Shown here in pieces: positions 8,302 to 63,899 of a stretch of 64,000 nt of DNA. The stretch spans positions 35,156,001-35,220,000 of the forward strand of contig NC_087245.1 in the NCBI RefSeq assembly GCF_037042905.1, in the 5' to 3' direction. Under the pieces are notes generated by a model. The model was not told where the DNA came from. It saw only the letters and a program-made list of their open reading frames with translations, and did no database searches. The translations under genes were made by a program, and so were the position numbers. The stretch is from Lytechinus pictus (lineage: Eukaryota). The first letter of the stretch is position 1. Every line of letters starts with the position of its first letter.

Positions 8302-8579
8302 TTAACATTCAGATTGGGATCATCTCTGGCATTAATTGGTTTGATTTCGTACTCCCGTGCCCCGTGATTTAATGAAAATGTATATCTTATTTTGGATGCT
8401 TTGAAAAGTATGACGAGGAGTTGTGTACTACTAGGTGTGGGCCAACCGGCCAAGAAACCTTTTTTTCTTTGTTTGTTAATAATGAATTGTAATGATTCCC
8501 CTTTCAGGTGTTGATGATTACTATTGTTTGGACCAATCCTCATTGATTATACAATGTAAACATAATCTGGTGAACGCCT

Positions 8580-14619: not shown

Positions 14620-15177
14620 CCCGGGGGGGCCACTGACATTGACGAGTGGATACCATGCGCGACCAAAAAACACGTAAAAAGGATGTCTTTTTCAAGATAG
14701 GGCACGTTACGTACGTAACGTAATAAGGGTGTAAAAAACACTAAAATAATGAAAAAAGGGTATCTAAAATAATGAAAAAAGGGTATCGCAAATTTGGCCC
14801 TTAATTTGCGAGGGTATAAAAAATTAAGACTAAAATGTTTTATAAAGGGTGTACTTTTTGCCCCAAGAGTCAACACTACGTGTTCAGAGTACAATTTGCG
14901 CGAGGTGTTGTGAGGTGGGGCTGTACTAAACCCAATGATGTAGGTAAAACCGACGACCGACGTCGTCCGTGGCATAACAATTGAAATATCGCTGTACTTG
15001 TTTAGGGGTTCAATTCAGGAAATACTTGCCAAGAGTATCGTTTTGTTTGTAATACTTGTTAAGGGTAGGGTTTCACACACCAAGTCTTGTTAAGGGGTGC
15101 ATTTTCAGAATATGGAAAATACGTGTTTAGGGTGCTTTTCGAGACCCCATGGTCGCGCATGGTATCCTCTCGTCAAT
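14620..15177 (-). mobile_element. CCCGGG-ended MITE, one terminus truncated
   Basis: Reverse-complement homologue of 38773-39348. It lacks the last ~20 bp of one TIR. Confidence 0.88.
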
Positions 15178-20100: not shown

Positions 20101-20276
20101 AATAATGAAAGTATGAACTGTCTTCCCCTTTCTTTCTAATTGATAACAGAAATGTCTAAACTTGTACTCAGAATTGGTAATCTCAATCCTTATTCCTTTC
20201 TACCACCACTCCCCATAGGCTACTTCTCCTGCTTTTCACCTCATTACCAGACTCACTTAAAAAGATTCAGGCTTAA

Positions 20277-20906
20277 CCCTAACGCTTCGTGCGATATTTC
20301 CAAAACGGAAAAAAAATAGCACCGCAAAGTTTCATGACTATTTTCTTTAAAGTCTCGCGCAACTTTTGAGACTAAATTCGCGACATACGGGTATAGCATC
20401 CCGACGCCATGTGACTTTTTAACGAGACAATGTCATGCCGAAAATGGCTCACTCTTATACTTTGTGTACAAAGTCTATGGGAGATGAAATTCATAAAAAG
20501 GGTGATTATTTGTCGTTCTAATTGGTTTGCTTAAATAATTTAGGGATTAATTAGTTGTTAAATGGTCTGTAATAATTTCCATTGAAAAAAACAATGAAAA
20601 ATCAAGGAAATACATAAGAAATTCAAAAAACAAAGAAATACATTTGGAAAAAATTGTCTTTCGCAATTCTTTTTTAATGAAACCTTTAAATTAGATTGGA
20701 AAAAAGAAGAAAATTTGAAGCGAAATTGGGTGTTGAATATGCAAATAATGTTTTTCACAAATAAGTTGGCATATTTCATTCATAATAAATAAAATATAAT
20801 TATTTTCAGAATTTTTTTTTCACACTGGCTTGTAGTTTATGTGGTAAAGAATGTGCATTCCAAATTTTGGAGCGATTACATCTCAAATAGCCCAGTCCTT
20901 TTAGGG
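20277..20906. mobile_element. piggyBac-like MITE (TTAA|CCCTAA...TTAGGG|TTAA)
   Basis: TTAA TSD at 20273-20276 and 20907-20910. The empty site is visible in a sister array unit (gatgcaggcataaattaatg, ~29631). Confidence 0.8.
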
Positions 20907-23900: not shown

Positions 23901-24727
23901 AATGAAGCGTGGGATATGAGTCAAAGAAATTATTCTTTAACAAAATAAATCACAGAGGATTATGCAATTTGCAGAAAAGGGAAAAATTCTTTCCTTACAT
24001 CACCTCTTTGCCAGTTTTTCCACTCTATTTTTCTTCATAATCTTTGAAAATTATTCAAATTAAAACTGGGTAAGATAATAAAAATATATATGAATTTGGT
24101 TAACAATATGATGACACATCAAGTTTGCTATTATATTATGATACATTCATGTTTGGAAACTTCAGAGGTTCAACGCTATGTGCAGGAAAGAATGTCTTCT
24201 CCCGGTACACCCATCTACTCCTATGTTTCACAAGTTCAATTTGTTAAATGTAACCGCTTTAAAAGAGTTAAATGTCAAATCCAATGCCTCTTTTGGATCA
24301 TAACTCACCTAAATACCAATAACTGCTCACCTCAGATATTCCTTGTAGATGATAATATCAAAATTGGAGTCATGTAATTGTTTCTGGTAGAATGGCTCTT
24401 TCATTTATACTGGAAGATGGTTCACACAAGATAGGGGATGTAGACATGCTGTACACTGAGTGACGTGACTGCAGATGTAAGTGGAAGAACAAATATATTC
24501 TAACAAAATTTCCTTTTAAAAAACATTCGTCATCCAATCGAATATGTAATTATGAAAATATGATCTGTCTTCCCCTTTCTTTCTCATTGATAACAGAAAT
24601 TTCTGCACTTGTGGTCAAAGTTGGTAAACTCCATCCTTTCTGCCACCTCTCCCCATATGCTACTTCTCCTACTTTTCACCATATTATTGGATCACCAAGT
24701 TTTAGTTCACTCAGGTTACTTATTTAA

Positions 24728-25120
24728 CCCTAAAAGGACTGGGCTATATTTAAGATGTATTGAGGACTTCTGATCTCGGTAGCAGTTCGCGTGATCCTGC
24801 TGAAATTTGCCACACACATTCCTTACAACATAAACTATATAAAGCCAGTATAAAAAATTCAGAAAATTTTAATTTTTTTATTCATTATGAATAAAATATG
24901 CAAATTAATTTGTGAGAACATTTCTGCATAGTTAATACTCAATTTCACTTTAAATTTTATTCCTATTTTTCCAGATGTCATCTTTGTAATCAAATTTAAA
25001 GGTTTCCACAAAGAAAAATTGCGAAGGCCTTTTTTTACCTTATGTATTTTTTTGTTTTTAGAATTTATGCGCTATTTGTTGGCGTTTCGGAAATATTGCG
25101 CGAAGCGTTGGGGGGGGGCC
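24728..25120. mobile_element. Second, inverted and truncated copy of the piggyBac-like MITE
   Basis: Starts TTAA|CCCTAAAAGGACTGGGCTAT, the reverse complement of the 20906 end. It ends near gcgaagcgtt, matching the 20281 end. Confidence 0.7.
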
Positions 25121-25984
25121 ATCATGGAGGTATAACTTAATGTTGTACTTTGTCAGAAAATGGGACAATTTTTGTTTATTAAACGCAATGAAATTTCATT
25201 CTACGACTTGCACATCCATCTCTTGTCCCGTTTTCTTACCTTACTTTGACTTTTTGAAAGTCAATACAGATTTGTAATCATTCACATTGAGGATTATGCA
25301 GTTTGCAAAAAAAGTGAAAAATTCTTTCCTTGCATCACGTCTTTGCCAGTTTTTCCACCCTATTTTTCTTCATAATAATCTTTGAAAATTATTGAAATTA
25401 ACACTGGTGAAGATGCTAAAAATTTATATGAATTTGGTTAACAATTTGATGACATATCATGTTTGCTAAATATATTATGATACATTCATGTTTGGAAACT
25501 TCAGAGGTTCAACGCTATGAGCAGGAAAGAATGTCTTCTCCCGGTACACCCATCTACTCCTCTGTTTCACAAGTTCAATTTGTTAAATGTAACCGCTTTA
25601 AAAGAGTTCAATGTCAAATCCAATGCCTCTTTTGGATCATAACTCACCTAAATACCGATAACTGCTCACTCCAGACATTCCATGTAGATGATAATATCAA
25701 GATTGGTGTCATGTCTTTCTGGTAGACTGGCTCTTTCATCTATGCTGGAAGATGGTTCACACAAGATGGGGGATGTAGCCATGTTCTACACTGAGTGATA
25801 TGACTGCAGATGTTAAGTGAAAGAACAAAATAGTTTTCTAACAACAATCCTTTTAAAAAATCATTCATCGTACTATGAAACATGTAACTATGAAATTAAT
25901 TAAAGCTTACATTGGGATAAATGCACTGCTGGTACTCACAAATCTCACCTGATTTTTGTGGCATCGAGTTTATAGATATGAATA

Positions 25985-26605
25985 TAAGGTTTTTAATATA
26001 GGTTTTAATATTTTGGACTTCCAACTACTCCCCCTTTTTTATATTCCAGTTTCACCAGATCTTTTTCAACAAGGTTTTCTATACGGATATTTCAGTTTGT
26101 TTAGAATGCTTCTTTGATATCAATTATTCATATGCCTTGTATACTTGCCTTTCTTAATCCTATTCTTGACCAGAATGATACCTATTGTAATAATTACATA
26201 TAACTCAATAATGCAATGATTATCATATTACCGTTCAGCATGGAGGTGATTTTTATTTACAGTTATTTATATTTCTGCAGCTTTTGCAATGAAAATATTT
26301 ATTTATATTCCGGATACATCTCTATTTCCTTTGATTCATTTTGCCCCCCCCCCTTTCCTTTGCATTCCTACTTTTTAGTGTGCAATATTTTGTGTAAGAG
26401 ATTATATACTTGATTTATGTCATGGGAGCGGCATGTGTGGGGGGCACATGAATCCGGGCAAGTGCTGAATTTCACTTTTGCGCCCCCTGACCCACTTGCC
26501 GCTCCCATATTTCATTGCATGTTTGTGAAATTGTAATTGTTTTCTGATGTATTGTATTTGCTCTTTTTTTATTGGTCAAGTAAATAGAAATTTCGATATG
26601 AATAT
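25985..26605. mobile_element. ~620-bp insertion in one array unit, probably a retroelement 3' fragment
   Basis: Absent from sister units and flanked by a gatatgaatat direct repeat. It contains a GC-rich stem-loop (26422-26508) followed by a T-rich tract. Confidence 0.5.
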
Positions 26606-28334
26606 GAATATCGCAATAATATGAACTATGTTTGTTTACACACATACATTCCCAAAGTTAAGAACAAAATTTCTCCAAAATGTTTCCTTCTGAGAAGTGC
26701 CTACTTTATGCAGAGGTTGCAACTGAAACAAGATATAAGTGAAATGACCTTGCCTATCAAATCTGTATTTTTTTTGGTAGGAAGGTTCAGAGGCATTGTG
26801 AGGAGGCATGTATGTATGTTGCAGATACATATATCACGAAGCTGGGTGCGCTCACTCATTTGATGGAAGAAAAGTGTAACTAACAGATATATTATGATAC
26901 ATTCATGTCTGGAAATTTCAGAGGTTCCATGCTATGTGCAGGAAAGAATGTTTTTTCCATGTACACCAATCTACTCCTCTCTTTACTGTAAGTTCAATAT
27001 TTTTAATGTAACTAAATGTTTGAAAGAGCTTTATGTCAAATCCAATGCCTCTTTTGGATCATAACTCACCTAAATACCAATAACTGCTCACGCCAGACAT
27101 TCCATGTAGATGACAACATCAGGATTGGTGTCAGGTCCTTGTTTCTAGTAGAGTGGTCCTTTCATTTATGCTGGAAGATAGTTCACACAAGGGTGTGCAT
27201 CCATGCTGTACACTGAGTGACGTGACTGCAGATATAAAGTGAAAGAACAAAATATTATTCTAACAACATTTCCTGTTCATAAACATTCATCGTACTATGA
27301 AACATGTTAAGAATGAAGGCTTACATTTCGACAAATACACTGCCAGTATACGACACCATAACACTTTTCAGAGCATTTTAAATTAGAGGATATGTACCAT
27401 TACATATCCCTAAAAACGACTCAATCTTACCTGATATTTGTGGCATCTAGTTTACAAATTTGAATATATGAATATTCCAATATAATGGATTATGTTTGTT
27501 TACACACATAAATTTCCAAATTTAAGAACCAAATTTCTCCAAAATGTTTCATTCTTCTAACAGCTTACTTTATAACTGTGTAACTATATAACTGCAATCA
27601 CCTTGCCTAATCAGTAAATTTTTTGGTAGGAAGGTTCAGGGGTATCGTGAGGAGGCAGTGGGGGCAGTTGCAAAAAGAAAGAAAAACATGAAGGGAAAGA
27701 AAGAGAAATATGAATGCAAAGGGAAGAATGGTAGCATTGTGGGTATTTGGAGTTTTTTTTCTCAAAAGCATAAAAACCTAAATTAAATATCTTCTCTCTC
27801 TACTTTGATGTAGAAATGTATGTAAATTCGGTTTACAATTTGATGACACAGTATTTGCAAAATCAATTATGATACATCCACATTTTGAAACTTCAGAGGT
27901 TCAATGTTTCGTGTGAAAAGGAAATTATTCTCCCTGCACACTCATCTACTCCTCTGTTTCACAAGGTAAATATGTTTAACGTGACTAGATTTTTAAAAGA
28001 GTGTTATGTCAAACCCAATGCATCTTTTGGATCATAACTCACCTAAATATCAATAAGTGCTCACACTAGACATTCCATGTATATAATGATTTCAAGATTG
28101 GTGTCATGTCCTTGTCAGTGGTAAACTAGCTCTCTTATTTATGCTGGAAGATGGTTCACACAAGATAAGAGATGTATCCATGCTGTACACCGAGTGATAT
28201 GACTGCAGATATAAAGTGAAAGAACAAAATATTATTCTAACAAAATTTCCTTTTCAAAAACATTCATTGTACAATCAAATATTCAATTATGAAAGTATGA
28301 ATCGTCTTCCCTTTTCCTTTTAATTCATAAGAAA

Positions 28335-29496
28335 AACAAGTGGAGCGCCTCTGGCAGTCTCACCTGCATCGTGCGATTCAATATAGCAGCAGTGATGACT
28401 TTGAAAACTACTATAAAATAATTATTCACAAAAAACACCATTCATATGATAAATACTACATTCATTGACAATAAATTACATTTGACCTTGATCATGCAAC
28501 CTAAGACTTGTCAGTGATACTTGATTACCCCTATATCCACATTTTACAAACTTTAAAAATTATGACAGCAATCTAATAATTACCTCTGAAATGGCCAAAG
28601 TTCAATGACCTTTGACCATGGTCATGTGACCTGAAATTCACACAGGATGTTCAGTCATACTTGATTACTCTTCTGTCCAAGTTTCATGAATCAGATCCAT
28701 AAACTTTTAAAGTTATGATGGTAATTCAACAGATACCCCCCAACATGGCCAAAGATCATTGACCTTTGACCTTGGTCATGTGACCTGAAATTCGCACAGT
28801 GATACTTGATTACTCTTATATCCAAGTTTTATGAACTAGACCAATGAACATTCAAAGTAATGATGGTAATTCTACAAATTATACCCCCAACTTGGCCAAA
28901 GTTCAATGACCTTAAATGACGTTTGACCTTGTTCATGTGACCTGAAACTCGGACAGGAAGTTCAGTCATACTTGATTATTCTTATGTCTAAGTTTCATGA
29001 ATCAGATCCATAAACAATCAAAGTTATGATGGTAATTCAACAGATACCCCTAACTTGGCCAAAGTTCATTGACCCTAAATGACCTTTGACCTCGGTCATA
29101 TGACTTGAAACTCAGACAGGATGTTCAGTAATACTTGGTTAACCTTATGTCAAAGTTTCATGAAATAGGTCCATACATTTTGTAAGTTATGATGACATTT
29201 CAAAAACTTAACCTTATGTTAAGATTTTGATGTTATTCCCCCAACATGGTCAAGTTCATTGACCCTAAATGACCTTGGTCATGTGACCTGAAACTAAGGC
29301 AGGATGTTCAGTAATACTTGATTAACCTTATGGCCAAGTTTCATGAACTAGGTCTATATACTTTCTAGGTTATGCTGTCATTTCAAAAACTTAACCTTCG
29401 GTTAACCTTTGGTTAAGATTTGGTGTTGACGCCGCCGCCGTCGGAAAAGCGGCGCCTATAGTCTCACTCTTCTTCGCAGGACTGGTGAGACAAAAA
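28335..29496 (-). mobile_element. Non-autonomous Helentron-type (HINE/DINE-1-like) element with internal ~150-bp tandem core repeats
   Basis: On the minus strand: 5' TTTTTGTCTCACC..., a (GGC)n microsatellite, tandem cores rich in TGACCTTTGACC, then a subterminal inverted GCAGGTGAGAC and the 3' end GCCAGAGGCGCTCCACTTGTT. Inserted in a T-run with no TSD relative to sister array units. Confidence 0.8.
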
Positions 29497-31448
29497 TGTC
29501 TGCACATGTGGTCAAAGTTGGTAAGCTCCATCTTTTCTGCCACCACTCCCCATAGGCTACTTCTCCTGCTTTTCACCTTATTACTGGACAACCAATTTTT
29601 AATTCACTTTTAAAGTTACTCATTAAAAAAGATGCAGGCATAAATTAATGATAATTATAGAAATAAATAGTTTATCAGGTGCAATGAAACTTCATTCAAC
29701 GTCCTTGGCTTGTACATCCATCTCTTGTCCTGTTTTCCTAGCTTAATTTGACATTTTGAATGTCAATACAGTATGTCAATACAGTTTCTTAATCATTCAA
29801 AATGAGGGGTGAGATATAAGTCATAAAGACTTGTCCTAAATTTGATAAATCACAGAGGATTCTACAGTCTGCAGAAAAGGGGAAAATCATTCCTTGCATC
29901 ATCTCTTTGTCAATTTTCCTCTCTATTTTCTTCATCTTTAAAAATTACTAAATTTAAAAACATTGAAGGTGTTAGAAATGTATGAATTTAGTCAACAACT
30001 TGATGACACATCATTTTCGCTAAATATATTATGATACATTCATGTTTGGAAACTTCAGAGGTCATAACTCACCTAAATACCAATATCTACTCACTCCAGA
30101 CATTCCATGTAGATGATAATATTAAGATTGGTGTCATGTCCTTGTTTCTGGAAGACTGGCTCTTTCATTTCTGCTGGAAGATAGTTCACACAAGATAGGG
30201 GATGTGGCCATGTTGTACACTGAGTGATATGACTGCAGATGTAAAGTGAAAGAACAAAATATTTTTCTAACAACATTCCTTTTTTTTATCATTCATCCTA
30301 CTATGAAACGTGAAACTATGAAATGAATTAAAGCTTACATTGGGATAAATGCACTGCTGGTAGACAACACTGGAACACTTTTCAGAGCAATTTAATTCAA
30401 AGGATTTGTACCATTATATACCATTAACACCTCACAAATCTCACCTGATTTTTGTTTATAGATTTGAATATATGAATATTGCAATATAATGGATTATATA
30501 TGTTTACACACATACATTTCCAAATTTAAGAACAAAATTTCCACAAAATGTTTCCTTCTGAGAAGAGCGTACTTTATGCAGAGGTTGCAACTGAAACAAG
30601 ATATAAGTGAAATCGCCTTGCCTATTAAATCTGTATATTTTCTTTTGGTAGGAAGGTTCAGCTGCATAGTGAGGAGGCAGTGGGGGCAGTTGCAAAAAGA
30701 AAGAACATGAGGGTAAAGAAAGAGAAATATGAAAGCAGAGGGAAAATGGAAGAATGGTAGCATTGTGGGTATTTGGATTTTTTCTCAAAAGCATAAAACC
30801 CTAAATCAAACATGTTCTCTCTCTCTAATTTGATATATAAATGATCTAAAATTGGTTAACAATTTGATGACACATCATTTTTGATAATTATATTAAGATA
30901 CATTGATGTTTGGAAACTTCAGAGGTTCAACGCTATGTGCAGGAAAGAATGTCTTCTCCCTGTACACCCATCCACTCCTATGTTTCACAAGTTCAATTTG
31001 TTAAATGTAACTGTTTTAAAGAGTTTAATGTCAAATCCAATGCCTCTTTTGGATCATAACTCACCTAAATACCAATAACTGCTCACGCCAGACATTACAT
31101 GTAGATGATAATATCAAGATTGGTGTCATTTCCTTGTTTCTAGTAGAGTGGCTCTTTCATTTATGCTGGAAGATAGTTCACACAAGATAGGGGATGTATC
31201 CACGCTGTACACCGAGTGATACATGTATGACTGCATATGTAAAGTGAAAGAACAAAATATTATTTTAACAAAATTTCCTTTTGAAAAACATTCATTGTAC
31301 TATGAAACATGTAATGAATTAAGGCTTATATTTGGACTAATGCACGGCCGGTATACTTTACCAAAGCACTTTTCAGAGTGATTTGTGCCATTATATATCA
31401 TCAGCAACAACTCACAATTCTAAACCAATTTCTGTGGTATCTATTTGG

Positions 31449-31696
31449 TTTATATGACACCTAAAAATTGGTCTGCTGATTGTTACGTCATTACAACATG
31501 TGCACTGGAAACACGAGTAGTCCCTGCAGCCTGCAGTCTCGGTGCACACGTGCAATGGACAAAATCGTATGGATCCAAACTTGCACAATGGATGGATCCA
31601 AAATTGCACGGTTGATGACGTCATTGCAAAATGGGCTGAATGAACGATATCAAACATCCAAGCAAATCACAAGGATCTATCTAGGTGTCATATAAA
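31449..31696. mobile_element. ~250-bp MITE inserted in the last array unit
   Basis: 15-bp TIR TTTATATGACACCTA / TAGGTGTCATATAAA. Absent from sister units. Confidence 0.7.
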
Positions 31697-32473
31697 TTTG
31701 AATATATGAATATTGCAATATAATGGATTATGTATTTTTACACACATACATTCCCAAATTTAATAACAAAATTTCGACAAACTGTTTCCTTCTGAGCGTT
31801 TTTTATGCAGAGGTTGCAATTGAAACAAGATATAAGTGAAATCACCTTGCCTATTAAATCAGTAATTTTTTTTGGTAGGAAGGTTCAGGGGCATAGTGAG
31901 GAGGCAGTGGGGGCAGTGCAATGGCAGCATTGTGGGTATTTGGTTTTTTTTCTCAAAAGCATAAAAACCTAAATTATACATTTTCTCTCTAATTTGATAT
32001 ATAAATGTATCTAAAATTGGTTAATTTGATGACACAGTATTTGCTAAATATATTGTGACAGAATCGCTAAATCTTAAGAAGCAAAACTTACGTAACAAAC
32101 TTAGCAATTATGACGTTATAATGCACCGTTTTTTGTAGCGTCGTTAAGTAAGAAATTTCCATTGTGACGTAGCACTGGTCATGGCTACTTCTGATCAGAA
32201 ACCATTAGCAATACGCATAAATAGCGTAATTAATCAAATGCGCGCTCCATATCTTGCCCCATAAAAGTTACTTTCCATAACGAAAATTATCATTAACCTA
32301 GATAAAGATTTTGTTGTTCACGGTGCCAAGGTTACTGATATCTCTGACATATTTTGTTCTTGACAACTGTGCTAACCTTTGAAGGTATATCTCAATAAAG
32401 ATGAATTTTTGGAGCAGGAGGCTAAGAGCCTTTGTAACTTAGATATTTGTCACCAAGGGTCTCTATATGAGGC

Positions 32474-32666: not shown

Positions 32667-33810
32667 TAGTGAGACCACTACATATCGACCACCTCTTTTG
32701 AAACCGACCACCTTCTTCACCATGTAGGTATGTTACAAAAGCGCCCTCTAGGCGTTTGCATGTGCAAGGAAAGGTTACCGGTATTCCTCATGACATCATT
32801 GTTTTTTACGTAGTTGAATGTTTACGGCAGCTGTCTATAGACTTGAAATAAAATCTCACTCGGTGATCTTGCGACTCTGTGTGCTACTGGAACTTTGGCC
32901 TTGCTTTCAACCTCTTGCTATTCATATTTACAGGTATCATCCCACTCTAAAAGGTATGCATTCCGATAGAACAACATTTCAACTACATTGTGGTGAAATT
33001 TGAAAGAAATCTACTGTACTGACGCTAAGTGTGTTTTTTACGTCCCTGTTTCGGCAGCATCTGTAATTTTTGGGAGTGTTGTTGGGCACTTCCACATGCC
33101 AATGTACGCGCATTGTTGTTTTCTATTAGTGCACCTTGGGGCCAATTAAGGTCACAACTTTTGTTTTTAAAAACAAAGGAATACATAGGCTAATAAGAAT
33201 TGAATAGGCGATTTGTATGAACTTAAAACTACCATAACTTTCTTGTTACTGGGGCTATTGAAATTAATGAGGTATTAAATAAAAGGTCTTGATGAGCTAA
33301 ATGATGCTATGAAGCAAACACCTAATTTCTCAATTTTTTTTGTAACATACCTACACCTAACCCAGGGAGCTCCAGCCTGCGAAGCGCCCAGGACTCATCC
33401 GTGTAATAGACCTTATCGCAAATAGCGTTCGTCGCGTGAGGGCGTATGTCACCGCAAAGGATCACAGGAATGAAAAAGGGAGCAAACGCGTAATCGGCTT
33501 TCGGGAAGCCATACAACGCCATATGTTTTGTGTAGTGTCACTCAAAATCCAGGCTTTTTTTAAAGTCTGATTTCTTTGTATTGAAATCATTTTGGATACT
33601 TGAATGTGGATTTATAGAACAATCTTTTTATCATGATTGCACAGTGAAATTATGAACTCAATGCTCTCAACATTTTCATAGTTTTCTGGGGCTAAATTTG
33701 GGAAGATTTTGTAAGAAAAGTGAGCATGGTGATTACGGGTCAATGGCGATTGACTTTAGAAAAGAGCACGTCGGCGATCCGAAGAGAGTCTGAGGCTATT
33801 TTTCCATTAA

Positions 33811-34418
33811 AGGATAAGTCCTCCCAACAAATAGTCCACCTGAACCAATAGAGAAAAATCCAACCAGCATAACACTGAAAATTTCATCAAAATTGGATCA
33901 TTGGATGTAAAATAAGAAAGTTATGACATTTTAAAGTTTCACTTAATTTCACAAAACAGTTATATGCACATCCTGGTCGGTATGCAAATGAGGAAACTGA
34001 TGACGTCATCCACTCACTGTTTCTTTTGTATTTTATTATATGAAATATGAAATATTCTAATTTTCTTCTCATTGTCAAATGAAACAATGATTAATTCCTC
34101 TTGAACATGTGGAATTAGCATTGTTTAATACTATATGGTTCAGTCAACTTGGTTCTTATTGTCAAATCTGTAAAAAATGAAATCCTGTATAAATCAAACA
34201 ATAAAAAACAAAAGAAATAGTGAGTGATGGACATCATCAACTGATCATTTGCATGACACTGACTTGTGAATATCACTGTTTTGTGAAAAATAAGAGAAAC
34301 TTTAAAATGCCATAACTTTCTTATTTTACATCCGATTTTGATGAAATTTTCAGCGTTATGCTAGTTTGAATTTTCTCTATTTATTCAAATGAACAATTTT
34401 CTGGGGTGGACTTGACCT
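33811..34418 (-). mobile_element. TTAA-target MITE (Kolobok-like), same family as 7701-8301
   Basis: TTAA at 33807-33810 and 34419-34422. The body is the reverse complement of 7701-8301. Confidence 0.88.
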
Positions 34419-34660
34419 TTAAAGAATATATTGATGAGCATCATAATGTAGACCATAATATATTTTATCTCCATAACTAGTAAATTTAGCTAGTTTTTGC
34501 TATTTTGGGGGAATATAGTCCTTTGCAAATGGGGCTTTTGAGTTTGATCATTGGGATTACAAGATCTATAATGTTTGATAGTGGGGGGGGGGGGGGGGGG
34601 GTGGGGGGTGAGAATCGAGGTTCGAGCGGCCGGAGTGACCAAATATAAAGTATATTTATG

Positions 34661-36146: not shown

Positions 36147-37140
36147 AACAAGTGGAACGCCTCTGGCAGTCTCGCCTGCATTACGCGATTTAAATAGCGC
36201 AGCAGTGCTTACTTTGAAAACTACTATAAAATAATCATTCACAAAAACACCATTCATATAATGACATAATACCACGTTCATTGACCATAAATGACATTTG
36301 AATGGTGACTTAAGACTTGTCAACTACACCCATGTCCACATTTCATTCACTCTATCTATAAACTTTCAAAGTTATGATGGCAATTCAACAATTACCCCAA
36401 CATGGCCTAAGTTTATTGACCTTAACTGACGTTTGACCTTGGTTTTGTGACCTGAAACTCACAGGGGATGTTCAGTGATACTTGTTTACTCTTCTATCCC
36501 AAGTTTTATGAACTAGATCCATAAACTTTCAGAGTTACGATGGTAATTCAACAAATACCCCCAACACGGCCAAAGTTCATTGACCTTAAATGACCTTTGA
36601 CCATGGTCATGTGACCTGAAACTCGTACAGGATGTTCAGTGATACTTGATTACTCTTATGTCCAAGTTTTATGAACTAGATCCGTAAACTTTCAGAGTTA
36701 GGATGGTAATTTAACAAATACCCCCAACACGGCCAAAGTTCATTGACCTTAAATGACCATTGACCATGGTCATGTGACCTATAACTCGCACAGGATATTC
36801 AGTGGGACTTAATTAACCTAATGTCCAAGTTTCATGAACTAGATCTATAAATTTTCAAAGTTATGATGGTAATTCAACAAATACCCCCAACATGGTCAAA
36901 GTTCATTGACCCTAAATGACCTTTGACCTTGGTCATGTGACCTGAAACTCAGGCAGGATGTTCAGTAATACTTGATTAACCTTATGTCCAAGTTTCATGA
37001 ACTAGGTCCATAGACTTTCTAAGTTATGATGTCATTTCAAAAACTTAACCTTAGGTTAAGATTTGATGTTGACGCCGCCGCCGCCGCCGTCGGAAAAGCG
37101 GCGCCTATAGTCTCGCTCTGCTATGCAGGCGAGACAAAAA
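36147..37140 (-). mobile_element. Non-autonomous Helentron-type (HINE/DINE-1-like) element, same family as 28335-29496
   Basis: Same termini and core repeats. The empty site gacctaaaaacgg at ~39816 shows insertion into an A/T run without a TSD. Confidence 0.82.
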
Positions 37141-38772: not shown

Positions 38773-39348
38773 CCCGGGGGGGCCACTTCCATTGACGAGT
38801 GGATACCATGCGCGACCAAGGGGTCTCGAAAAGCACCCTAAACACGTATTTTCCAAATTCTGAAAATGCACCCCTTAACAAGTATTGGCGTCTGAAACCC
38901 TACCCTTAACAAGTATTGGAAACAAAACGATACTCTTGGCAAGTATTCCCTGAAATGAACCCCTAAACAAGTACAGCGATATTTGATTGTTATGTCACGA
39001 GTCCATCGGTCGTCGGTTTTACCTTTACAGTTTACACACCATTTGGTTTAGTATGGCCCCAGCTTCCACACCTCGCGCAAATCGGACTCTAAACACGTAG
39101 TGTATGGGGCAAAAAGGACATCCTTTATAAAACATTTTAATTTTGTTTATCATATCCCCGCAAATTTGACCCTAAACACGTACTAGCTTTCCTAGCGAAA
39201 AAGATACCCTTTTTTCATTATTTTTGTGTTTTTGACACCCTTATCACGTTACGTACGTAACGTGCCCTATCTTGAAAAAGACATCCTTTTTACGTGTTTT
39301 TTTGGTCGCGCATGGTATCCACTCGTCAATGTAAGTGGCCCCCCCGGG
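38773..39348 (+). mobile_element. Full-length CCCGGG-ended MITE (576 bp)
   Basis: ~47-bp TIRs (CCCGGGGGGGCCACTT.CATTGACGAGTGGATACCATGCGCGACCAA). TSD GGGTAGTC at 38765-38772 and 39349-39356, which is 8 bp if the end is CCCGGG as in the 14620 copy. Confidence 0.92.
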
Positions 39349-42139
39349 GGGTAGTCCTAACAGTCACTTCTTTATTCTTATTAAACAACATACACAAAAA
39401 ACAATATACAATAATCTCATAGCCCCTATGGTGCGAGCTAAAATATTTTTGAAATTTCATGTATTTTATCCTCAAAATTGAACATTCTGAGCAATGTTTG
39501 TGAACTTGAACAAGATGCGTATTTAACTAAAATTGCTGCGAGCGCAAAGGACAAGCAACAAAAAAAAAAAAGAAGAGAGAAATATACATTCTGGCCTGAT
39601 CGAAAAGGGACTTGCTAATGGCGGTTTACAGTTAGCCATGAAGATGATGCATATTTCAATCAAAACAATACGAGCGCAAAGCGCGAGCTGAAAAATGTTT
39701 GAAATTCTGACCATAAAAATTGACATTCCAAGCACTTAATCATGAACAGAATAAGTAATATTCTAGGTACACAATTCAAGCACGAAGCGTGAGCGGATAA
39801 AAATTGAGATTTATAGACCTAAAAACGGAACACTATTTTATATTCATGTTTTCTAAATCGTGAAAAGGATGGGTAATTGGTTACCGTCTTACATTTATAA
39901 TGCAAGCGCGAGAAGAAAATTTTTGATATTCTGATCTGAAGCGAGATAATTTAAGCATGTTTTCAATACATGATAAGCAGCCTATCTCAATAAACATGTG
40001 TTCATGTTCTAGAATTTGTGCATTCTAAATACACTTTTTATCACGGAAATCAATAATGCGAGCGTGAAGCGCGAACTTAAAATATTGGATATTTCGATGT
40101 GAAAAGGTCAAATTAAGCACTATTTAAAGCACTGTGTAGGAAAATAATTGTGAAGTGGACATGAATCACTCTTAATAAATGAGGCGAATGCAAAGCATGA
40201 GTTGCTGAAGTTATTCTGGCCTAGGACCGGGACATTCTAAGGACATTTGTTCATCGTATGAATGACTGTCTTCCGATTCCTCTTCCCAAGCGCAAAAAGA
40301 AACATGTCGATCTTCCAATCTGAAAAAAGTGACAATTTAATAACTTTACGGTATTAGGAATGAATGAAAATAATATTATCTTATTTTCCTAATCTAATAA
40401 GCCTAATGAGAGCGCTAAATTTGTTGATATTAAAGCCTTAAAACTTGACATTTTAAGCGCTTTTGCAATTATGAATAGGATGCATTAATTAACGTACTTT
40501 TAGAAATTAATGCGAACGGCAATTGCGAGCGAATTTTTAATTTAATAAACTTATTATTAACTTAATAAACTGTCATGAAAAGGGAATTTTAAGTACTTTG
40601 ATTTATATACATAACTCACCAATTCAAGCACTTGCCCGCAATACCTGATAGGATTTGACAATCAGACCTTAAAAGTTATATTTTGATAAATTTATGGAAT
40701 AGGACCTATACACGAAGAGAATAGGTACTCCACAAATCAAATAATGCTAGGGCACAGCGTGAGCTAAAAATGTTGATACTAAGATCATAAAACGAATATT
40801 TTACAAAGCACTTTTTTATTGATTCGTAAATCAAACAGAATAATGAAAGTTCAATGTCTTATAGCTGACCGTACAGTATATGTTTTGTATTTTTGACTAC
40901 AAAGCTTGAAATTTCAAGCTCCATATATCAGCCTATTGAGCAATAATGTATAACTCATCGAAAATGAGCAATGCGAGTGCAAAGCGCGAGCGAAAATTTC
41001 AATTTTACATGTTTTTTTAATCATCAAAGTCTCCCCTTCCTAATTTTATTCACTTTTCTCCCTCCCTTTCCCCCTCTTACTTTTCCCCTCTCTTTTCCTT
41101 CTTTTTCTCTCTCCCTTTTTTGGTCTTTAATCCGCCCGGGGGGGGGGGGGGGGGGGGGTGACCGGGCCCCCTGGATCCTTCTATGGTAGCGATGGTGGTG
41201 GGAGAAAGAAAGAAAGCATTTGAATTATTCACCTCACAGTGTTAAACGGGGAAAATAGGAAATGGCTAAATTTTGAAAATCAGTAATGTGGAGCCCTATT
41301 CAAGTTTACTTTCATGCATCTACACCAACACCTTGACAGGGGCTGATCCAGGATTTTCCAAAGTGGGGGCATTCAATACAAAAAATAAACAAGGCCTAGT
41401 ATACTAGACCCCCCCCCCCTCCTTAATAGGTGAAATTTGGCTAGGAAAACGTCATTCCATACAATTAATGTTTCGTTCCTGGGAAAAGTTGACAGCTGAC
41501 AAATAAGTCCTCACTTGAGTATGAACGCCAAAATCCACTATTTGATATATTACGGGAGGAGGCACCTTTATCTTTCTCCCCTTTCCTTATTCCTCATCCA
41601 TTCTATAGGCAGATCCATGGGACCAAATTAAGGGTGGCGGCGCCCCCCTCCTACTGGCGGTGCAAAAATTAAAAAGAAAGGTTATTAGTGCTGTATAGTT
41701 AAAGGAAAAAAAAATCGGCTTTTAACGGCGCTGATCGGGGAGAAAAATTGTATCCCCCCTATTGGCAAAATTTGGATCCACACCGGGTATTGGCCTGTCG
41801 TACCTCCCAGTAAATGAAACAACAAAATCAACAAAGGCCGTTGCACTAGTACTAAAATTTTTGCGAGTCTTTATTTTTTAAATATTTTCGTTTATAATGG
41901 TATTCATTAAATAGTGGAGGTTCGCATCCTGAGAATTCAAAGAAAAAGAAAAAAAAATGTGCACTGAACAGGAAACACTTAACGTCCTTTTCAATTCCAA
42001 TTTAGATAATTACTTCTTTACTCAAAGTCATTCAAATAAAAAAATAAGCATAATTTTTTTATACCTTATATTTGTTCATCACGAATACAATGAAGCCGAC
42101 ACTTATTTGCTTTGTTTTGGATTAATCTTTATATTATTA

Positions 42140-47888: not shown

Positions 47889-49895
47889 AATAAGCTTGTT
47901 GAAATTGTATTGGATGGATAGCTAACTGTCTAAAAGTGGCAGAGTGGTTTTGAAGAGAAGGGAAAAGAGGGGTTGATGAAATATACAAGTTAATTACCGT
48001 GCGTATATCGTTAAAAAAGTGGAGTCAAAAAGGAGGATAAAGATATAGACAGTTTGAATTGATTTATTTAGTGGATAGCGAACTGTCTAAAAGTGGCAGA
48101 GTGGTTTTGAAGAGAAGGGAAAAGAGGGGTTGATGGAATATACAGGTTAATTACCGTGCGTATATCGTTAAAAAAGTGGAGTCAAAAAGGAGGATAAAGA
48201 TATAGACAGTTTGAATTGATTTATTTAGTGGATAGCCTACTGTCTAAAAGTGGCAGAGTGGTTTTGAAGAGAAGGGAAAAGAGGGGTTGATGGAATATAC
48301 AGGTTAATTACCGTGCGTATATCTGGTTTTGATTGGTGGTGATTTTTTTTACCTGATTGCTAAGGAAGCATGAATGCTTGTAAGCAAGCAACCAGAGGAC
48401 CGACGGCTTAAGGTCCACTCAGAAGGACCTGGTACTGAGGATTAATGCCTTACCAAAGGGCACTAGCGCACCAAGTGGGAATCGAACCCGGGTCACCGGA
48501 ATACGAGTCCCTCGCTCTACCGACTGAGCTATCGCGCCTCCATATCGTTAAAAAAGTGGAGTTAAAAAGGAGGATAAAGATATAGACAGTTTGAATTGAT
48601 TTATTTAGTGGATAGCCTAGTGTCTAAAAGTGGCAGAGTGGTTTTGAAGAGAAGGGAAAAGAGGGGTTGATGGAATATACAGGTTAATTACCGTGCGTAT
48701 ATCGTTAAAAAAGTGGAGTAAAAAAGGAGGGTAAAGATAAAGACAGTTTGAATTGATTTATTTAGTGGATAGCCTAGTGTCTAAAAGTGGCAGAGTGGTT
48801 TTGAAGAGAAGGGAAAAGAGGGGTTGATGGAATATACATGTTAATTACCGTGCGTATATCGTAAAAAAAGTGGAGTCAAAAAGGAGGATAAAGATATAGA
48901 CAGTTTGAATTGATTTATTTAGTGGATAGCGAACTGTCTAAAAGTGGCAGAGTGGTTTTGAAGAGAAGGGAAAAGAGGGGTTGATGGAATATACAGGTTA
49001 ATTACCGTGCGTATATCGTTAAAAAAGTGGAGTCAAAAAGGAGGATAAAGATATAGACAGTTTGAATTGATTTATTTAGTGGATAGCCTACTGTCTAAAA
49101 GTGGCAGAGTGGTTTTGAAGAGAAGGGAAAAGAGGGGTTGATGGAATATACAGGTTAATTACCGTGCGTATATCGTTAAAAAAGTGGAGTTAAAAAGGAG
49201 GATAAAGATATAGACAGTTTGAATTGATTTATTTAGTGGATAGCCTAGTGTCTAAAAGTGGCAGAGTGGTTTTGAAGAGAAGGGAAAAGAGGGGTTGATG
49301 GAATATACAGGTTAATTACCGTGCGTATATCGTTAAAAAAGTGGAGTCAAAAAGGAGGATAAAGATATAGACAGTTTGAATTGATTTATTTAGTGGATAG
49401 CCTACTGTCTAAAAGTGGCAGAGTGGTTTTGAAGAGAAGGGAAAAGAGGGGTTGATGGAATATACAGGTTAATTACCGTGCGTATATCGTTAAAAAAGTG
49501 GAGTAAAAAAGGAGGATAAAGATATAGACAGTTTGAATTGATTTATTTAGTGGATAGCCTACTGTCTAAAAGTGGCAGAGTGGTTTTGAAGAGAAGGGAA
49601 AAGAGGGGTTGATGGAATATACATGTTAATTACCGTGCGTATATCGTTAAAAAAGTGGAGTCAAAAAGGAGGATAAAGATATAGACAGTTTGAATTGATA
49701 TATTTAGTGGATAGCCTATATACTGTCTAAAAGTGGCAGAGTGGTTCTGAAGAGAAGGGAAAAGAGGGGTTGATGAATATACAGTTAATTACCGTGCGTA
49801 ATTTTGTTGGAAAAGTGGAGCAAAAAAGAACGATAAATATATAGACAGTTGATACTGTGACTTATTTTGTGGATAGTAAAAAGTTGCAGAGTGAT
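47866..49895 (+). repeat. 157-bp tandem satellite, ~11.5 highly similar copies
   Basis: Unit gtggagtcaaaaaggaggataaag...ccgtgcgtatatcgttaaaaaa, with starts at 48019 and 48176. Interrupted once by a SINE. Confidence 0.97.
48324..48541 (-). mobile_element. Full-length tRNA-derived SINE (218 bp)
   Basis: On the minus strand: A box TAGCTCAGTCGG, B box GGTTCGATTCC, a tRNA-unrelated body and an A/C-rich tail. TSD ATATC at 48319-48323 and 48542-48546; every other satellite unit shows the empty site. Confidence 0.92.
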
Positions 49896-53057: not shown

Positions 53058-53784
53058 AATCCTGGGTTTTAGGGGCGTAAAATATCTGTATACATTACCG
53101 GCCTCCAACTTCAGCCAAATCATCCAAGCATAGTATGGACTGCTAAAAGGGCAAATATTCAAATATTATTGGGCTGTTTTCAACATTTTTGTCTCGCATG
53201 CTGGGCCTTGTTATTATGTGGATCTTTTCTTGAAACTTTGGCACTAATGCAATTAAGTTTCACTGACCGAGTTGAAGGTCACATGATCAAAGTCAAAGGT
53301 CATTTAGGGTAAAATTTTTAATTGCATCTGAAATATACGTTTATAGACCTGCATTTTCCCATATATACAACCGCATGTTCTTATTGAAGTTACCAACTTG
53401 AACAATATTTAATCATGACTGTCTCCCCCCCCCCTCCCCTTTGTTTTTCTCCAGCAGTGCTCTACTTGGTCAGAAATTATGGAGTGAGATCACTTGACAA
53501 ACCCGATGCAAGAATTGGATGGCAGAGCCAGATACATTACCAGGCATTTCATCAACGGTCTATAATAAATGATGATAAAAAAGAACAACAGATAAACTAT
53601 ATTTTGACTTAAGGGGGGGGGGGGAGGGGGGAGTATTTCAAGCCATTTTTTAGGAGAGAAGATCAACTTTGAAAATATTAATATATCCCCTAATGTAACT
53701 GCCGGGTTTGAGGGGTATAAATTATTTTGGGGGCTGAAGGGGGGTACTTCCAAGAAATCTACATTTGAGTGGAGGGGGGGGGGG

Positions 53785-56700
53785 GTTTAGGGGCATAAAC
53801 TATTTTTTGACTTGAGGTGGGGGGTACTTCCAAGAACCCAACATTAAATTGGAGAGGGGATGAAATTGGACTATATATATTACCGTATTGTACCTACTGG
53901 GTTTTAGGGGCATAAACTATTTTAGGGATTTGAAGGGGGGGGGGGTACTTCCAAGAACGCTACATTTAATTGGAAAGGGGATGAAATTGGCCTATATATA
54001 TTACCGTATTGTACCTACTGGGTTTTAGGGGCATAAACTATCTTAGGGACTTGAAGGGGGGGGGGTACTTCCAAGAAGCCAACATTTAATTGGAAAGGGG
54101 ATGAAAATGGCCTATATATATTACCGTATTGTACCTACTGGGTTTTAGGGGCATAAACTATTTTTTGGCTTGAGGGGGGGGGGGTACTTCCAAGAACGCT
54201 ACATTTAATTGGAAAGGGGATGAAATTGGCCTATATATATTACCGTATTGTACCTACTGGGTTTTAGGGGCATAAACTATTTTAGGGATTTGAAGGGGGG
54301 GGGGTACTTCCAAGAACGCTACATTTAATTGGAAAGGGGATGAAATTGGCCTATATATATTACCGTATTGTACCTACTGGGTTTTAGGGGCATAAACTAT
54401 TTTTTGGCTTGAGGGGGGGGGGTACTTCCAAGAACGCTACATTTAATTGGAAAGGGGATGAAATTGGCCTATATATATTACCGTATTGTACCTACTGGGT
54501 TTTAGGGGCATAAACTATTTTAGGGACTTGAAGGGGGGGTGGTACTTCCAAGAAGCCAACATTTAATTGGAAAGGGGATGAAATTGGCCTATATATATTA
54601 CCGTATTGTACCTACTGGGTTTTAGGGGCATAAACTATTTTAGGGACTTGAAGGGGGGGGGGTACTTCCAAGAAGCCAACATTTAATTGGAAAGGGGATG
54701 AAATTGGACTATATATTACCGTATTGTACCTACTGGGTTTTAGGGGCATAAACTATTTTTTGGCTTGGGGGGGGGGTACTTCCAAGAACGCTACATTTAA
54801 TTGGAAAGGGGATGAAATTGGCCTATATATATTACCGTATTGTACCTACTGGGTTTTAGGGGCATAAAGTATTTTAGGGACTTGAAAGGGGGGGGGGGGT
54901 ACTTCCAAGAACGCTACATTTAATTGGAAAGGGGATGGAATTGGCCTATATATATTACCGTATTGTACCTACTGGGTTTTAGGGGCATAAACTATTTTTT
55001 GGCTTGAGGGGGGGGGGGTACTTCCAAGAACGCTACATTTAATTGGAAAGGGGATGAAATTGGCCTATATATATTACCGTATTGTACCTACTGGGTTTTA
55101 GGGGCATAAACTATTTTAGGGACTTGAAGGGGGGGGGTGGTACTTCCAAGAAGCCAACATTTAATTGGAAAGGGGATGAAAATGGCCTATATATATTACC
55201 GTATTGTACCTACTGGGTTTTAGGGGCATAAACTATTTTTTGGCTTGGGGGGTGTACTTCCAAGAACGCTACATTTAATTGGAAAGGGGATGAAATTGGC
55301 CTATATATATTACCGTATTGTACCTACTGGGTTTTAGGGGCATAAACTATTTTTTGGCTTGGGGGGGGGGGGGTACTTCCAAGAACGCTACATTTAATTG
55401 GAAAGGGGATGAAATTGGCCTATATATATTACCGTATTGTACCTACTGGGTTTTAGGGGCATAAACTATTTTAGGGACTTGAAGGGGGGGGGGTGGTACT
55501 TCCAAGAAGCCAACATTTAATTGGAAAGGGGATGAAATTGGCCTATATATATTACCGTATTGTACCTACTGGGTTTTAGGGGCATAAACTATTTTAGGGA
55601 CTTGAAGGGGGGGGGGGTACTTCCAAGAAGCCAACATTTAATTGGAGAGGGGATGAAATTGTCCTATATATATTACCGTATTGTACCTACTGGGTTTTAG
55701 GGGCATAAACTATTTTAGGGATTTGAAGGGGGGGGGGGGTACTTCCAAGAACGCTACATTTAATTGGAAAGGGGATGAAATTGTCCTATATATATTACCG
55801 TATTGTACCTACTGGGTTTTAGGGGCATAAACTATTTTAGGGATTTGAAGGGGGGGGGGTACTTCCAAGAACGCTACATTTAATTGGAAAGGGGATGAAA
55901 TTGGCCTATATATATTACCGTATTGTACCTACTGGGTTTTAGGGGCATAAACTATTTTAGGGACTTGAAGGGGGGGGGGGTACTTCCAAGAAGCCAACAT
56001 TTAATTGGAGAGGGGATGAAATTGTCCTATATATATTACCGTATTGTACCTACTGGGTTTTAGGGGCATAAACTATTTTAGGGATTTGAAGGGGGGGGGG
56101 TACTTCCAAGAACGCTACATTTAATTGGAAAGGGGATGAAATTGGCCTATATATATTACCGTATTGTACCTACTGGGTTTTAGGGGCATAAACTATTTTA
56201 GGGACTTGAAGGGGGGGGGGGTACTTCCAAGAAGCCAACATTTAATTGGAAAGGGGATGAAATTGGCCTATATATATTACCGTATTGTACCTACTGGGTT
56301 TTAGGGGCATAAATTATTTTAGGGACTTGAAGGGGGGGGGGGGTACTTCCAAGAAGCCAACATTTAATTGGAAAGGGGATGAAATTGGACTATATATATT
56401 ACCGTATTGTACCTACTGGGTTTTAGGGGCATAAACTATTTTTTGGCTTGGGGGGTACTTCCAAGAACGCTACATTTAATTGGAAAGGGGATGAAATTGG
56501 CCTATATATATTACCGTATTGTACCTACTGGGTTTTAGGGGCATAAACTATTTTTTGGCTTGAGGGGGGGGGGGGTACTTCCAAGAACGCTACATTTAAT
56601 TGGAAAGGGGATGAAATTGGCCTATATATATTACCGTATTGTACCTACTGGGTTTTAGGGGCATAAACTATTTTAGGGACTTGAAGGGGGGGTGGTACTT

Positions 56701-56815
56701 CCAAGAAGCCAACATTTAATTGGAAAGGGGATGAAATTGGCCTATATATATTACCGTATTGTACCTACTGGGTTTTAGGGGCATAAACTATTTTAGGGAC
56801 TTGAAGGGGGGGGGT
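53785..56815 (+). repeat. ~120-bp tandem satellite, ~25 copies, with a variable poly-G tract
   Basis: Unit ctgggttttaggggcataaactatttt...G(6-13)tacttccaagaa...ttaccgtattgtaccta. Degenerate precursor units lie at 53595-53785. Confidence 0.97.
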
Positions 56816-58674: not shown

Positions 58675-59846
58675 ATGTCGAAAGGCACGGGCCAGAGGGC
58701 AAAGGCAGAGAAGTTCATGAAGGGCAGCAGTGGAAAGACCCATGCAGTGTGGTCCAATGGTGTGGACATCAATAGGAAGGTGCGATATAGTTTAACAAAA
58801 ATTTATAAGTTTCTGATTTGGTTAGATTTAGGCATGAATTTCTTAATGAGAAAATACTCCCACGGGCTCCCATGCAAAAAATAATGACAATACAAGGAAT
58901 TAGTATGTTGAGACGATGTCGAGCATTGAGGGGAAGGGAAGTAATCACATATATTTTGTTCATGTAACATAATCACTACAATAACATATATTTCATAGAC
59001 AATCTATTTTAGGGATGCTATAATCATGTATTATTGTTATTTTTTCAGCTGGTTGTAATATTTGGAGATTCCCAAATGAGGGCAATTGTCCAGGGTAATT
59101 ACCGACACAAGTGGCCATTTTTCAACGTCATCGTGAACTGCACCCCAGGGGCAACCTGTGCTCACTTGAAGGAGGAGATACGTCAGTATGTCTATCCGAA
59201 GCGCCCAGACTTCATCGTCCTCCAGGTGGGAACCAACAACGTAAGGGCCAAAAACTGGCAGGGAGCCCTTGGAGAGGCGAAGATCCAGTTCCGCCAGCAA
59301 GTATGTCTGTCATGTGAGTACATTATCTTCATGTATTAGCACATTTGCGGAAATTCTATTCATTGTGATAAAATGTGAAGGTTCACATAAAGGTCAAGTG
59401 TTTCGCCAGTCTATAATGTGCGGAAGAGTTAATGAAAACATAACAATATTTGCCGTATCGTTTTGTTGTCTTAAAAAAATATACCTCTTGATATATTTTC
59501 TACTCCTGAATAATTGTTATTGTTATGCTGTCTGCTTTTAGTTTGATTAGCAGGATAGTAAATTAATTATGATTGTTATTGATATGATGTTGATTTGGGG
59601 AATATTATATACAGGGGCCGCGGAACGGTTTTCAAAGGGGGGGGGGGGGGCTGACCATGCAAAAAAAATCACAATCATAATAATTTGTACGTTTTTGTAC
59701 ACGGTTTTGGAAAAAAAAGTGGGGGACTGAAGCCCCCCCCCCCCCCCCGTTTCCGCAGCCCCAGATATACTAGGCTACATTCATGAATGAGGGAATATTT
59801 TCGTTAGATTTTGCAGATGGTATACAAGTAATGACTCTCGACCCCC

Positions 59847-59877
<31 letters not shown>

Positions 59878-60124
59878 CCACCTCCAGGTCATAGCGGTAG
59901 GAATACCACCACGTCTTGATGAACCTGGCAAGTTCGTAGATGTATACAATGGTTGTTTTCGGAGGATAGCCCTGGAGGAGGGAGTAGGCTGGCTGGACGT
60001 CGACCACCTCTTCGCGACCAACCAACCTATTCTCTGGGCCAGAGATGGACTCCACCTAAGTGACAACGCTGGGATCCCTCGATTCATGGATTTCATCTCT
60101 GGCCACTTGGCCAAGCTTTGTTAA
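58675..60124 (+). CDS. SGNH/GDSL-family hydrolase (esterase), ~197 aa, exons 58675-58779, 59049-59300, 59888-60124
   Basis: Both introns are GT-AG and phase 0. Block I VIFGDSQ, block II TPGAT, block III LQVGTNN, block V RDGLHL. Exon 1 is the least certain, and a short exon may be missing in intron 2. Confidence 0.85.
59612..59764. mobile_element. CAGGGGCCGCGGAA-ended MITE in intron 2 of the SGNH gene
   Basis: Homologous to 45481-45634, with flanking 5-bp repeat ATATA. Confidence 0.8.
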
Positions 60125-61070: not shown

Positions 61071-61958
61071 AAAATGTACAAACACATATAATTTTACAAA
61101 AATTATAATACAGTACATTTTATAGAATGAAAAATGAGCTGGGATGTACTCACAAACTGGCTTAATAAGCATTAACTTTAGGAAAGAAATGTGCACCTGT
61201 GTGGGAAGAAGCATGTGTAAAAACAAACAAAATGCCAGAGGTCATGATAATTGTTGCTGAAGATACAATTTTGTATCCTCGGTCATGACCACTAGACTAC
61301 AGCGAACATAAGATTATCTTAGATCTATCTGATAACGAAGGCGTAATAAAAGTGTATGTAATGATAACCATACAAATCAATACAAATAAACATACCAGTG
61401 GCATACCGTGGGTTACTGCATTAGGGGGGGGGGCACCAGCAAAGTTTTAAGTCACTTTTAGTGAGCGCGCGAAGCGCGCTCAGTTGACAGGTATACTTAC
61501 CTAATAGAGACATTGCAAGAACAGTGCCATTAAACGGATATGTAATTTCATAGGGTATAATAAATGGAATTTTCTTCGCCTAACCAACTCCTGTTTGACG
61601 CCCATTCTGTACTCTCATAAAAACCAGCTCTCAGCCTTGACTCATTCACCAACAGGAGACGGTGGGCTTCTACTTTTGGGGGCAAAAGTTAAAGTGATCA
61701 CATGTGTGTTTATTTCGATGAGATGTGATTTTCGATATGAAAATTGAGACGAAACATTTAAGAAAAAACGAAACATTGTTTTACTACACATAGGGCCTAC
61801 TTTGCTAATACATTGGTCGAAAAAATTAGACATCATTATTCGCGTAATCTTCTAAAATTGGCCCTTGCCATGAATTATCCATGGCACCGCTGCCGTCATC
61901 ATTAGCGTCAAGTTCGGCTTCTACAGAATCGTATTCTACGAAACATTCATTTACCCCA

Positions 61959-62140
61959 GTGTGTGTGTGTATTGGAGTTTTGTCAGACGTTTATCAATCA
62001 GATATGATTATTTACATTTGGGACCGACCTTTAACGTCACCATCCAAAATACGTGACCAGGGTTCGAACCTCGAACCTCTGCATCAATTTGCAACTTCCC
62101 CACATAGCTTGGATTACAGGCGCACGCCACAACGCCCAGT
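61959..62140 (-). mobile_element. SINE with a 7SL (Alu-domain)-like head, B-box-like segment, central domain and (CA)n tail
   Basis: Minus strand reads ACTGGGCGTTGTGGCGTGCGCCTGTAATCCAAGCTATGTGGGGAAG...GGTTCGAACCC...GACGTTAAAGGTCGGTCCC...ACACACACACAC. Confidence 0.72.

Positions 62141-63860: not shown

Positions 63861-63899
<39 letters not shown>

Follow-up and report, generated by a model that had tools for sequence, protein, structure and literature searches.

According to two accounts, independent 7SL-derived SINEs are 'extremely rare' and known from supraprimates, hagfish and the shrew mole only (PMC13023118, 2026), or are listed only from supraprimates and hagfish (PMC10886601, 2024). Alu, B1, Tu (the Euarchontoglires SINE1) and the shrew mole Urop carry at their 5' end the 5' domain of 7SL with the determinants for SRP9/14; they feature a central deletion that keeps both the 5' and the 3' end of 7SL, and they terminate in poly(A) and rely on L1 (PMC13023118). 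The same account ascribes a dual 7SL and tRNA origin to the left units of tree-shrew Tu and records 7SL-tRNA dimers in rodents. In the hagfish Eptatretus burgeri, the element SINE1-1_EBu carries an independent 7SL head on an older, tRNA-headed SINE body and tail, lacks the S domain and ends in a microsatellite. Its head of ~140 bases contains both 7SL ends, the whole Alu domain and the B box of 7SL itself, and is combined with RTE-derived tail pieces, an (AAC)n end and target site duplications (TSDs) of ~17 bases; among hagfish SINEs, bodies held in common are known to have exchanged their heads (PMC7245038). An engineered minimal Alu domain, SA46/AY46, comprises 7SL bases 1 to 46/47 and is sufficient for L1-driven mobility. 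In cells, retrotransposition with the 46-base 5' domain reaches ~86% of that of full Alu; the domain also associates with SRP9/14, and the absence of natural elements of this size has been attributed to the missing B box (PMC12199147).

Here we describe an element of 182 bases on the minus strand (62140-61959) of a Lytechinus pictus window, by which we mean the whole stretch of 64,000 nucleotides that was analysed. Sequence inspection confirmed the placement in the initial annotation (minus strand, 61959..62140). Self-comparison of the 64-kb window returned one copy, the next-best matches having E-values of 0.11 and 3.3, and with a length below 1 kb and a single dispersed rather than tandem copy within the window the element has the dimensions of a SINE. 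We consider it, with a probability of roughly three in four, to be one copy of a SINE family that was born when bases 1-47 of 7SL replaced the tRNA head of an older SINE.

The closest described case is SINE1-1_EBu, with which the element shares the independent 7SL head on an older body and tail, the microsatellite end and the absence of the S domain (PMC7245038); it differs from the hagfish element in its head of 47 bases, a B box from a tRNA-like remnant, a Deu-like stub, a (CA)n end and a TSD of at most 6 bases. With Alu, B1, Tu and Urop it has in common the 5'-terminal 7SL domain and its SRP9/14 determinants (PMC13023118), but it is without the 7SL 3' end and without poly(A), and it resides in a non-mammalian genome. 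It contains the same 7SL piece as SA46/AY46; SA46, however, was built in the laboratory and is driven by an external promoter and equipped with poly(A), whereas the present element is natural, with a predicted hybrid internal promoter and a structured tail (PMC12199147). By inference, the element would work like Alu while standing outside the Alu/B1/Urop/Ebu1-1 type, the full Deu-SINEs and the 7SL genes.

The 7SL-like head occupies bases 1-47 (62140-62094, minus strand) and corresponds in the Rfam Metazoa_SRP alignment to the 5' Alu domain, comprising helices 2-4, the U-turn and the loop-loop triplets, with the A box inside it. When 701 bases around the element were scanned with cmscan against all 4,227 Rfam families, Metazoa_SRP was the best of six matches (31.9 bits, below the gathering score of 70; E 1.8e-6, or ~1.6e-4 if the whole 64 kb are taken into account). 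The model begins, with its position 1, at 62140, the first base of the element, which thereby belongs to SINE1 in the broad sense of a 5' end derived from 7SL. The Rfam consensus is equalled at 36 of the first 46 model positions, as counted by eye in the cmscan alignment. The initial annotation had based its proposal of a 7SL-derived head on 28 identities in 36 positions to human 7SL RNA and had named the Rfam SRP model as a check; its arithmetic is right for the two strings it gave, and the cmscan result now supports the 7SL-like nature of the head. The second match over the region of the element was mir-1268 (E 0.008), a family that we take to be Alu-related.

The match ends at base 47 with the closing helix (bases 1-3 with 45-47), which is Watson-Crick throughout even though both partners depart from the consensus in two of its three pairs. 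Apart from two inner pairs in helix 3, flagged by cmscan as non-standard, every pair in the three 5' Alu domain helices is possible. In energy folding, the first 50 bases are no more stable than shuffled sequences (z 0.25; 121 of 200 shuffles fold as well); the Alu fold rests on tertiary contacts, which plain energy folding does not score. Binding of SRP9/14 depends on G4, U23 and G24 together with the GGC/GCU loop triplets (PMC12265939). By eye, the triad and both loop triplets are all present in the head under the same numbering, and it is thus predicted to retain the features needed for SRP9/14 binding.

When metagenome contigs were searched, in one scan, for a 22-base motif taken from the central part of the element, three loci were returned, L001 (525-675), L002 (515-681) and L003 (165-370), which are SINE-like elements with one common middle and tail and three different heads. 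Local alignments to the element start at its B box for L001 (from 62069; 83 of 104 columns identical) and L002 (from 62070; 98 of 112), and at 62057 for L003 (76 of 92), so that overall identity across B box, middle and tail amounts to 80-88%; the longest exact stretch, 27 bases in the central block, is found in all three loci. The heads of the three relatives carry A- and B-box-like motifs, from which we infer that they are tRNA-derived. Rfam returned no match in these heads at E up to 1, a 7SL-like head being present in none of the three, and ARAGORN detected no tRNA gene in any of the three loci; the only tRNA-type match among the heads is to the tRNA-like mascRNA in L002 (Rfam, E 1.4). The contigs are probably animal DNA, and the body motif occurs at no locus in prokaryote genomes and at none in viral contigs. 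The motif adjoining the head likewise has no locus in prokaryote genomes and a single one (L004) in a phage-type contig, which was rejected as a relative and taken as chance, being an isolated 19-base match with neither head nor body. Among the 24 sequencing runs listed, 20 (9 studies, 3 organisms) share 0.09-0.22 of 32 words, none shares half of them, and no RNA run is among the holders listed; such common words could stem from other copies or from diverged flanks, and they speak neither for nor against a family.

Since the segment that runs from B box to tail recurs behind other heads, the element is a chimera, as the initial annotation had proposed in calling it a 7SL/tRNA-chimeric SINE: a 7SL-like head is joined to a SINE-type body common to elements with other heads. 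This chimera is real, and it likely represents a new build of a rare kind of SINE. The relatives also bear on how much of 7SL is kept. The cmscan alignment skips 201 positions of the Metazoa_SRP model, S domain included, and forces the 3' end of the model onto 62046-62070 with several non-standard pairs. Because this 3' match is forced, and because most of the stretch is also common to the relatives without a 7SL head, we conclude that only the 47-base 5' Alu domain is kept. The earlier view that the fold of the Alu domain is retained therefore stands for the 5' half (three helices, triad and loop triplets) and fails for the 3' half, which is absent; the accompanying statement that the element is not a 7SL gene and lacks the S domain agrees with the skipped positions and the low score. 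A Rfam scan of the whole 64 kb gave no match at gathering score, and thus neither a 7SL gene nor an S domain in the window. The element is accordingly no full 7SL gene or full retrocopy, which would bring the S domain and ~300 bases, and it does not show the build of Alu, B1, Urop and Ebu1-1, namely both 7SL ends around a central deletion, a whole Alu domain and the 7SL B box. The SINEBase rule (PMC3531059), which was written for unsplit heads, asks for an identity of 60% or more to tRNA, 5S or 7SL RNA across 60 bases or more; by this rule the overlap of 47 bases is too short, 36 of 46 positions being identical to the Rfam consensus.

Motifs that would form an internal promoter are present in both parts of the chimera. 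An A-box-like stretch inside the head (62136-62127) agrees, by eye, at 8 of 10 bases with the human 7SL A box as printed in PMC7245038. The B box that had been noted in the initial annotation is found by sequence inspection at 62070-62061, 56 bases from the A-box-like stretch; together with a T-arm-like stretch (62070-62054 in all) it is common to the tRNA-like heads of L001 and L002. Between head and B box lies a linker (62093-62071) with a small predicted hairpin and, beside the B box, a 7-base tandem duplication. The linker is not conserved in the alignment with L001-L003 and is possibly a worn tRNA anticodon arm and variable loop; Rfam yields no tRNA match over 61950-62095, nor is there a tRNA match anywhere over the element. 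The duplication itself (62065-62078, minus strand) runs ahead of and into the B box and creates two overlapping B-box-like words.

Downstream follows a central conserved block (62053-62021) whose resemblance to the Deu/Nin domain, in comparison with AmnSINE1, is confined to the 33 bases with which that domain begins. Counted by eye, 24 of 33 columns agree with the AmnSINE1 line headed 'Deu domain' (PMC7245038, supplement file 1), and 26 of 33 do so in the block of L002. A block resembling the start of the Deu domain is thus shared with the Deu/Nin/Inv-type SINEs, which have tRNA or 5S heads (PMC7245038, PMC5786205), and the exchange of heads on a shared body is paralleled by the 5S heads fused to Deu SINEs (PMC4758252); in contrast to these elements, the rest of the central Deu domain of ~130-140 bases is absent, and the element is therefore no Deu-SINE. 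The available portions of PMC7245038, PMC4758252 and PMC5786205 report no 7SL head in SINEs of the Deu/Nin/Inv type. Middle and tail of the element together measure ~130 bases. An alternative reading of the body as a C/D-box snoRNA was rejected, as the matches to SNORD101 (E 0.37 and 0.077) lie far below gathering and the D-box-like word is lost in L001-L003.

The tail (62020-61984, minus strand) contains a bulged hairpin, predicted by RNAalifold from four sequences, that would likely be the signal recognised by a LINE. It can form in all four sequences, in which 94% of 52 cells pair compared to 23-40% when the structure is slid along the alignment, and its loop varies. Since two-sided changes occur at none of the 13 pairs and the observed values are attained by every one of 500 shuffles, covariation lends the hairpin no support. 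The 3' end (61983-61959) closes with (AC)6 at 61970-61959, in accordance with the (CA)n tail described initially, so that a structured region and (AC)6 are found where elements of the Alu/B1/Urop type have poly(A). At the corresponding position L002 has an (AC)n end and L003 a (CCAA)n end; L003 additionally carries a 9-base duplication in the loop of the tail. No LINE sharing the tail of the element was found within the window.

At the outer boundary, a 6-mer at 61960-61955 is identical to the six bases that open the head (62140-62135), the pair that had been put forward as a possible TSD. The repeat is real, but as it overlaps both head and tail it is not assignable as a TSD from one copy: upstream it coincides with bases 1-6 of the 7SL-like head itself, and the downstream copy takes in the last AC of the tail, so that only four of the bases are independent. 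Of 7,598 flank positions, 26 (0.3%) carry this 4-mer; between the 30-base flanks of the element there is no further direct repeat of 4 bases or longer. The 6-mer may be a short TSD at a target resembling the 5' end, or it may be chance. A second, tRNA-headed SINE-like element lies at 48324-48541 (minus strand) of the window, where it is inserted in the 157-base satellite. ARAGORN identifies its head as tRNA-Thr and Rfam as tRNA (E 0.00045), and it is flanked by a 5-base TSD (48319-48323 and 48542-48546), the empty site corresponding to intact satellite units; from this clear duplication it follows that short TSDs do occur in this genome. Its kinship with the body described here is marginal, 99 of 1,000 shuffles scoring as well against the element and 8-19 of 1,000 against the three relatives.

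We propose that template switching or recombination put bases 1-47 of 7SL in place of the 5' part of the tRNA head that an older, Deu-like SINE had carried. The A box contributed by 7SL and the B box of the tRNA remnant, at the distance given above, would form a hybrid internal Pol III promoter. The head of the transcript would fold into the 5' Alu domain and bind SRP9/14, which would bring the RNA to ribosomes making LINE protein, and the LINE enzyme would recognise the hairpin of the tail and use the (CA)n end for priming. The head piece equals the 46-base minimum for Alu mobility, with the B box supplied from another source (PMC12199147), and the element would thereby answer the suggestion made there that nothing but the lack of a B box keeps heads of 46 bases from succeeding in nature. 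Even if the family is real, the docking step through SRP9/14 has only about even odds, because the same body spreads with other heads, and an element with its own LINE tail may have no need to depend on SRP9/14.

Given a real family, it comes close to an even bet that the 7SL head serves only as a donor of the A box and as a 5' cap structure, with no role for SRP9/14 and with the LINE locating the RNA through its tail. Heads other than 7SL are found on the same body and tail, which can therefore spread without it, and the intact fold may merely reflect recent copying from the host gene. Yet all of the named SRP9/14 determinants are intact although the body differs from its relatives at several sites, and hagfish SINE1 likewise has a LINE tail and nevertheless keeps the Alu fold (PMC7245038).

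It is unlikely that no family exists and that the element is a one-off chimeric retrocopy, made when the LINE enzyme switched from the RNA of a tRNA-headed SINE to 7SL RNA in a single insertion. Such a retrocopy would look identical to what we observe: the window holds no second copy with this head, the other three body-bearing loci (0 of 3 with the 7SL head) have heads of their own, and chimeras of this kind are known, as in the case of U6-L1 (PMC7245038). A random switch point would, however, seldom yield a 7SL piece that coincides exactly with the functional 5' domain, beginning at base 1 and ending with the closing helix, and at once place an A box as far from the B box as a promoter requires; the linker, moreover, is unlike those of all three relatives and fits a lineage of its own. 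We thus favour a SINE family over a single event.

A chance resemblance to 7SL, in which the head would be random sequence or derived from a worn tRNA, appears very improbable, in spite of a score under the gathering value and the lack of excess folding energy, as the E-value of 1.8e-6 was obtained over all families, the first model position coincides with the very start of the element, the closing helix carries two-sided changes, and the element shows no match to tRNA. Contamination by a human Alu joined into the assembly is hardly credible: the head does resemble Alu-type 5' ends, with mir-1268 as the second Rfam match, but this resemblance ends at base 47, the departures from the Rfam consensus at paired sites are compensated, and the head passes unbroken into a body that is also found in marine and other metagenome contigs, not into Alu sequence or poly(A).

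In the open literature, to which the search was confined, we found no invertebrate 7SL SINE and no published description of elements of the L001-L003 type. An 18-base word from the body occurs in none of the main texts of the open literature, three words are missing from the supplement of PMC5786205, and the central word GGTCGGTCC is absent from the supplement files searched for PMC7245038 and PMC4758252. If real, an invertebrate family would be a fourth origin of 7SL SINEs and a new build, as the known ones all keep both 7SL ends. We advance only tentatively, with the balance leaning somewhat against it, the combined claim of a first invertebrate 7SL-derived SINE family that is also the first natural element on the minimal 5' Alu domain alone, with a tRNA B box and a use of SRP9/14 that reaches a non-L1 LINE. 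The element bears on the question whether the Alu domain aids SINEs through SRP9/14 docking or only lends them a promoter, and if a minimal Alu domain using SRP9/14 is the true reading, ribosome docking would help even SINEs that possess their own LINE tail. Sister elements with the same body and tail but tRNA-like heads provide a natural control for judging what the head contributes.

The surrounding window is rich in repeats, with a GC content of 31-47%, and contains no long open frame outside a 31-base minisatellite; open frames of at least 150 codons come only from this 31-base array. When 81 open frames of at least 75 codons, taken from outside the satellite regions and the element, were compared with Pfam, two matches were obtained, both below cut-off. 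A GDSL-lipase-like match at 59774-60121 (plus strand; E 0.0026, with 18.7 bits where the cut-off is 32.9) is possibly a worn exon, a piece of a retroelement, or chance. Satellites are located at 4811-6566, 28592-29194, 36332-37031, 47915-49876 and 53782-56814, with units of 31, 163, 157 and 120 bases, and a degenerate tandem array of ~13 kb (18870-32060), whose long units are 78-91% identical, goes unreported by Tandem Repeats Finder. Amongst the dispersed repeats, one of 610 bases is present in two copies (7697-8305 and 33807-34422; 86% identical) that also match in opposite orientation at 73%, making it an imperfect, MITE-like palindrome, and another of 560 bases (14620-15177 and 38773-39362; 85% identical) shows signs of terminal inverted repeats. 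The 163-base satellite forms two arrays and recurs as pieces near 53.3, 61.0 and 63.9 kb; a perfect (CGG) run of 12.7 units at 63862-63899 lies within a piece of this 163-base repeat.
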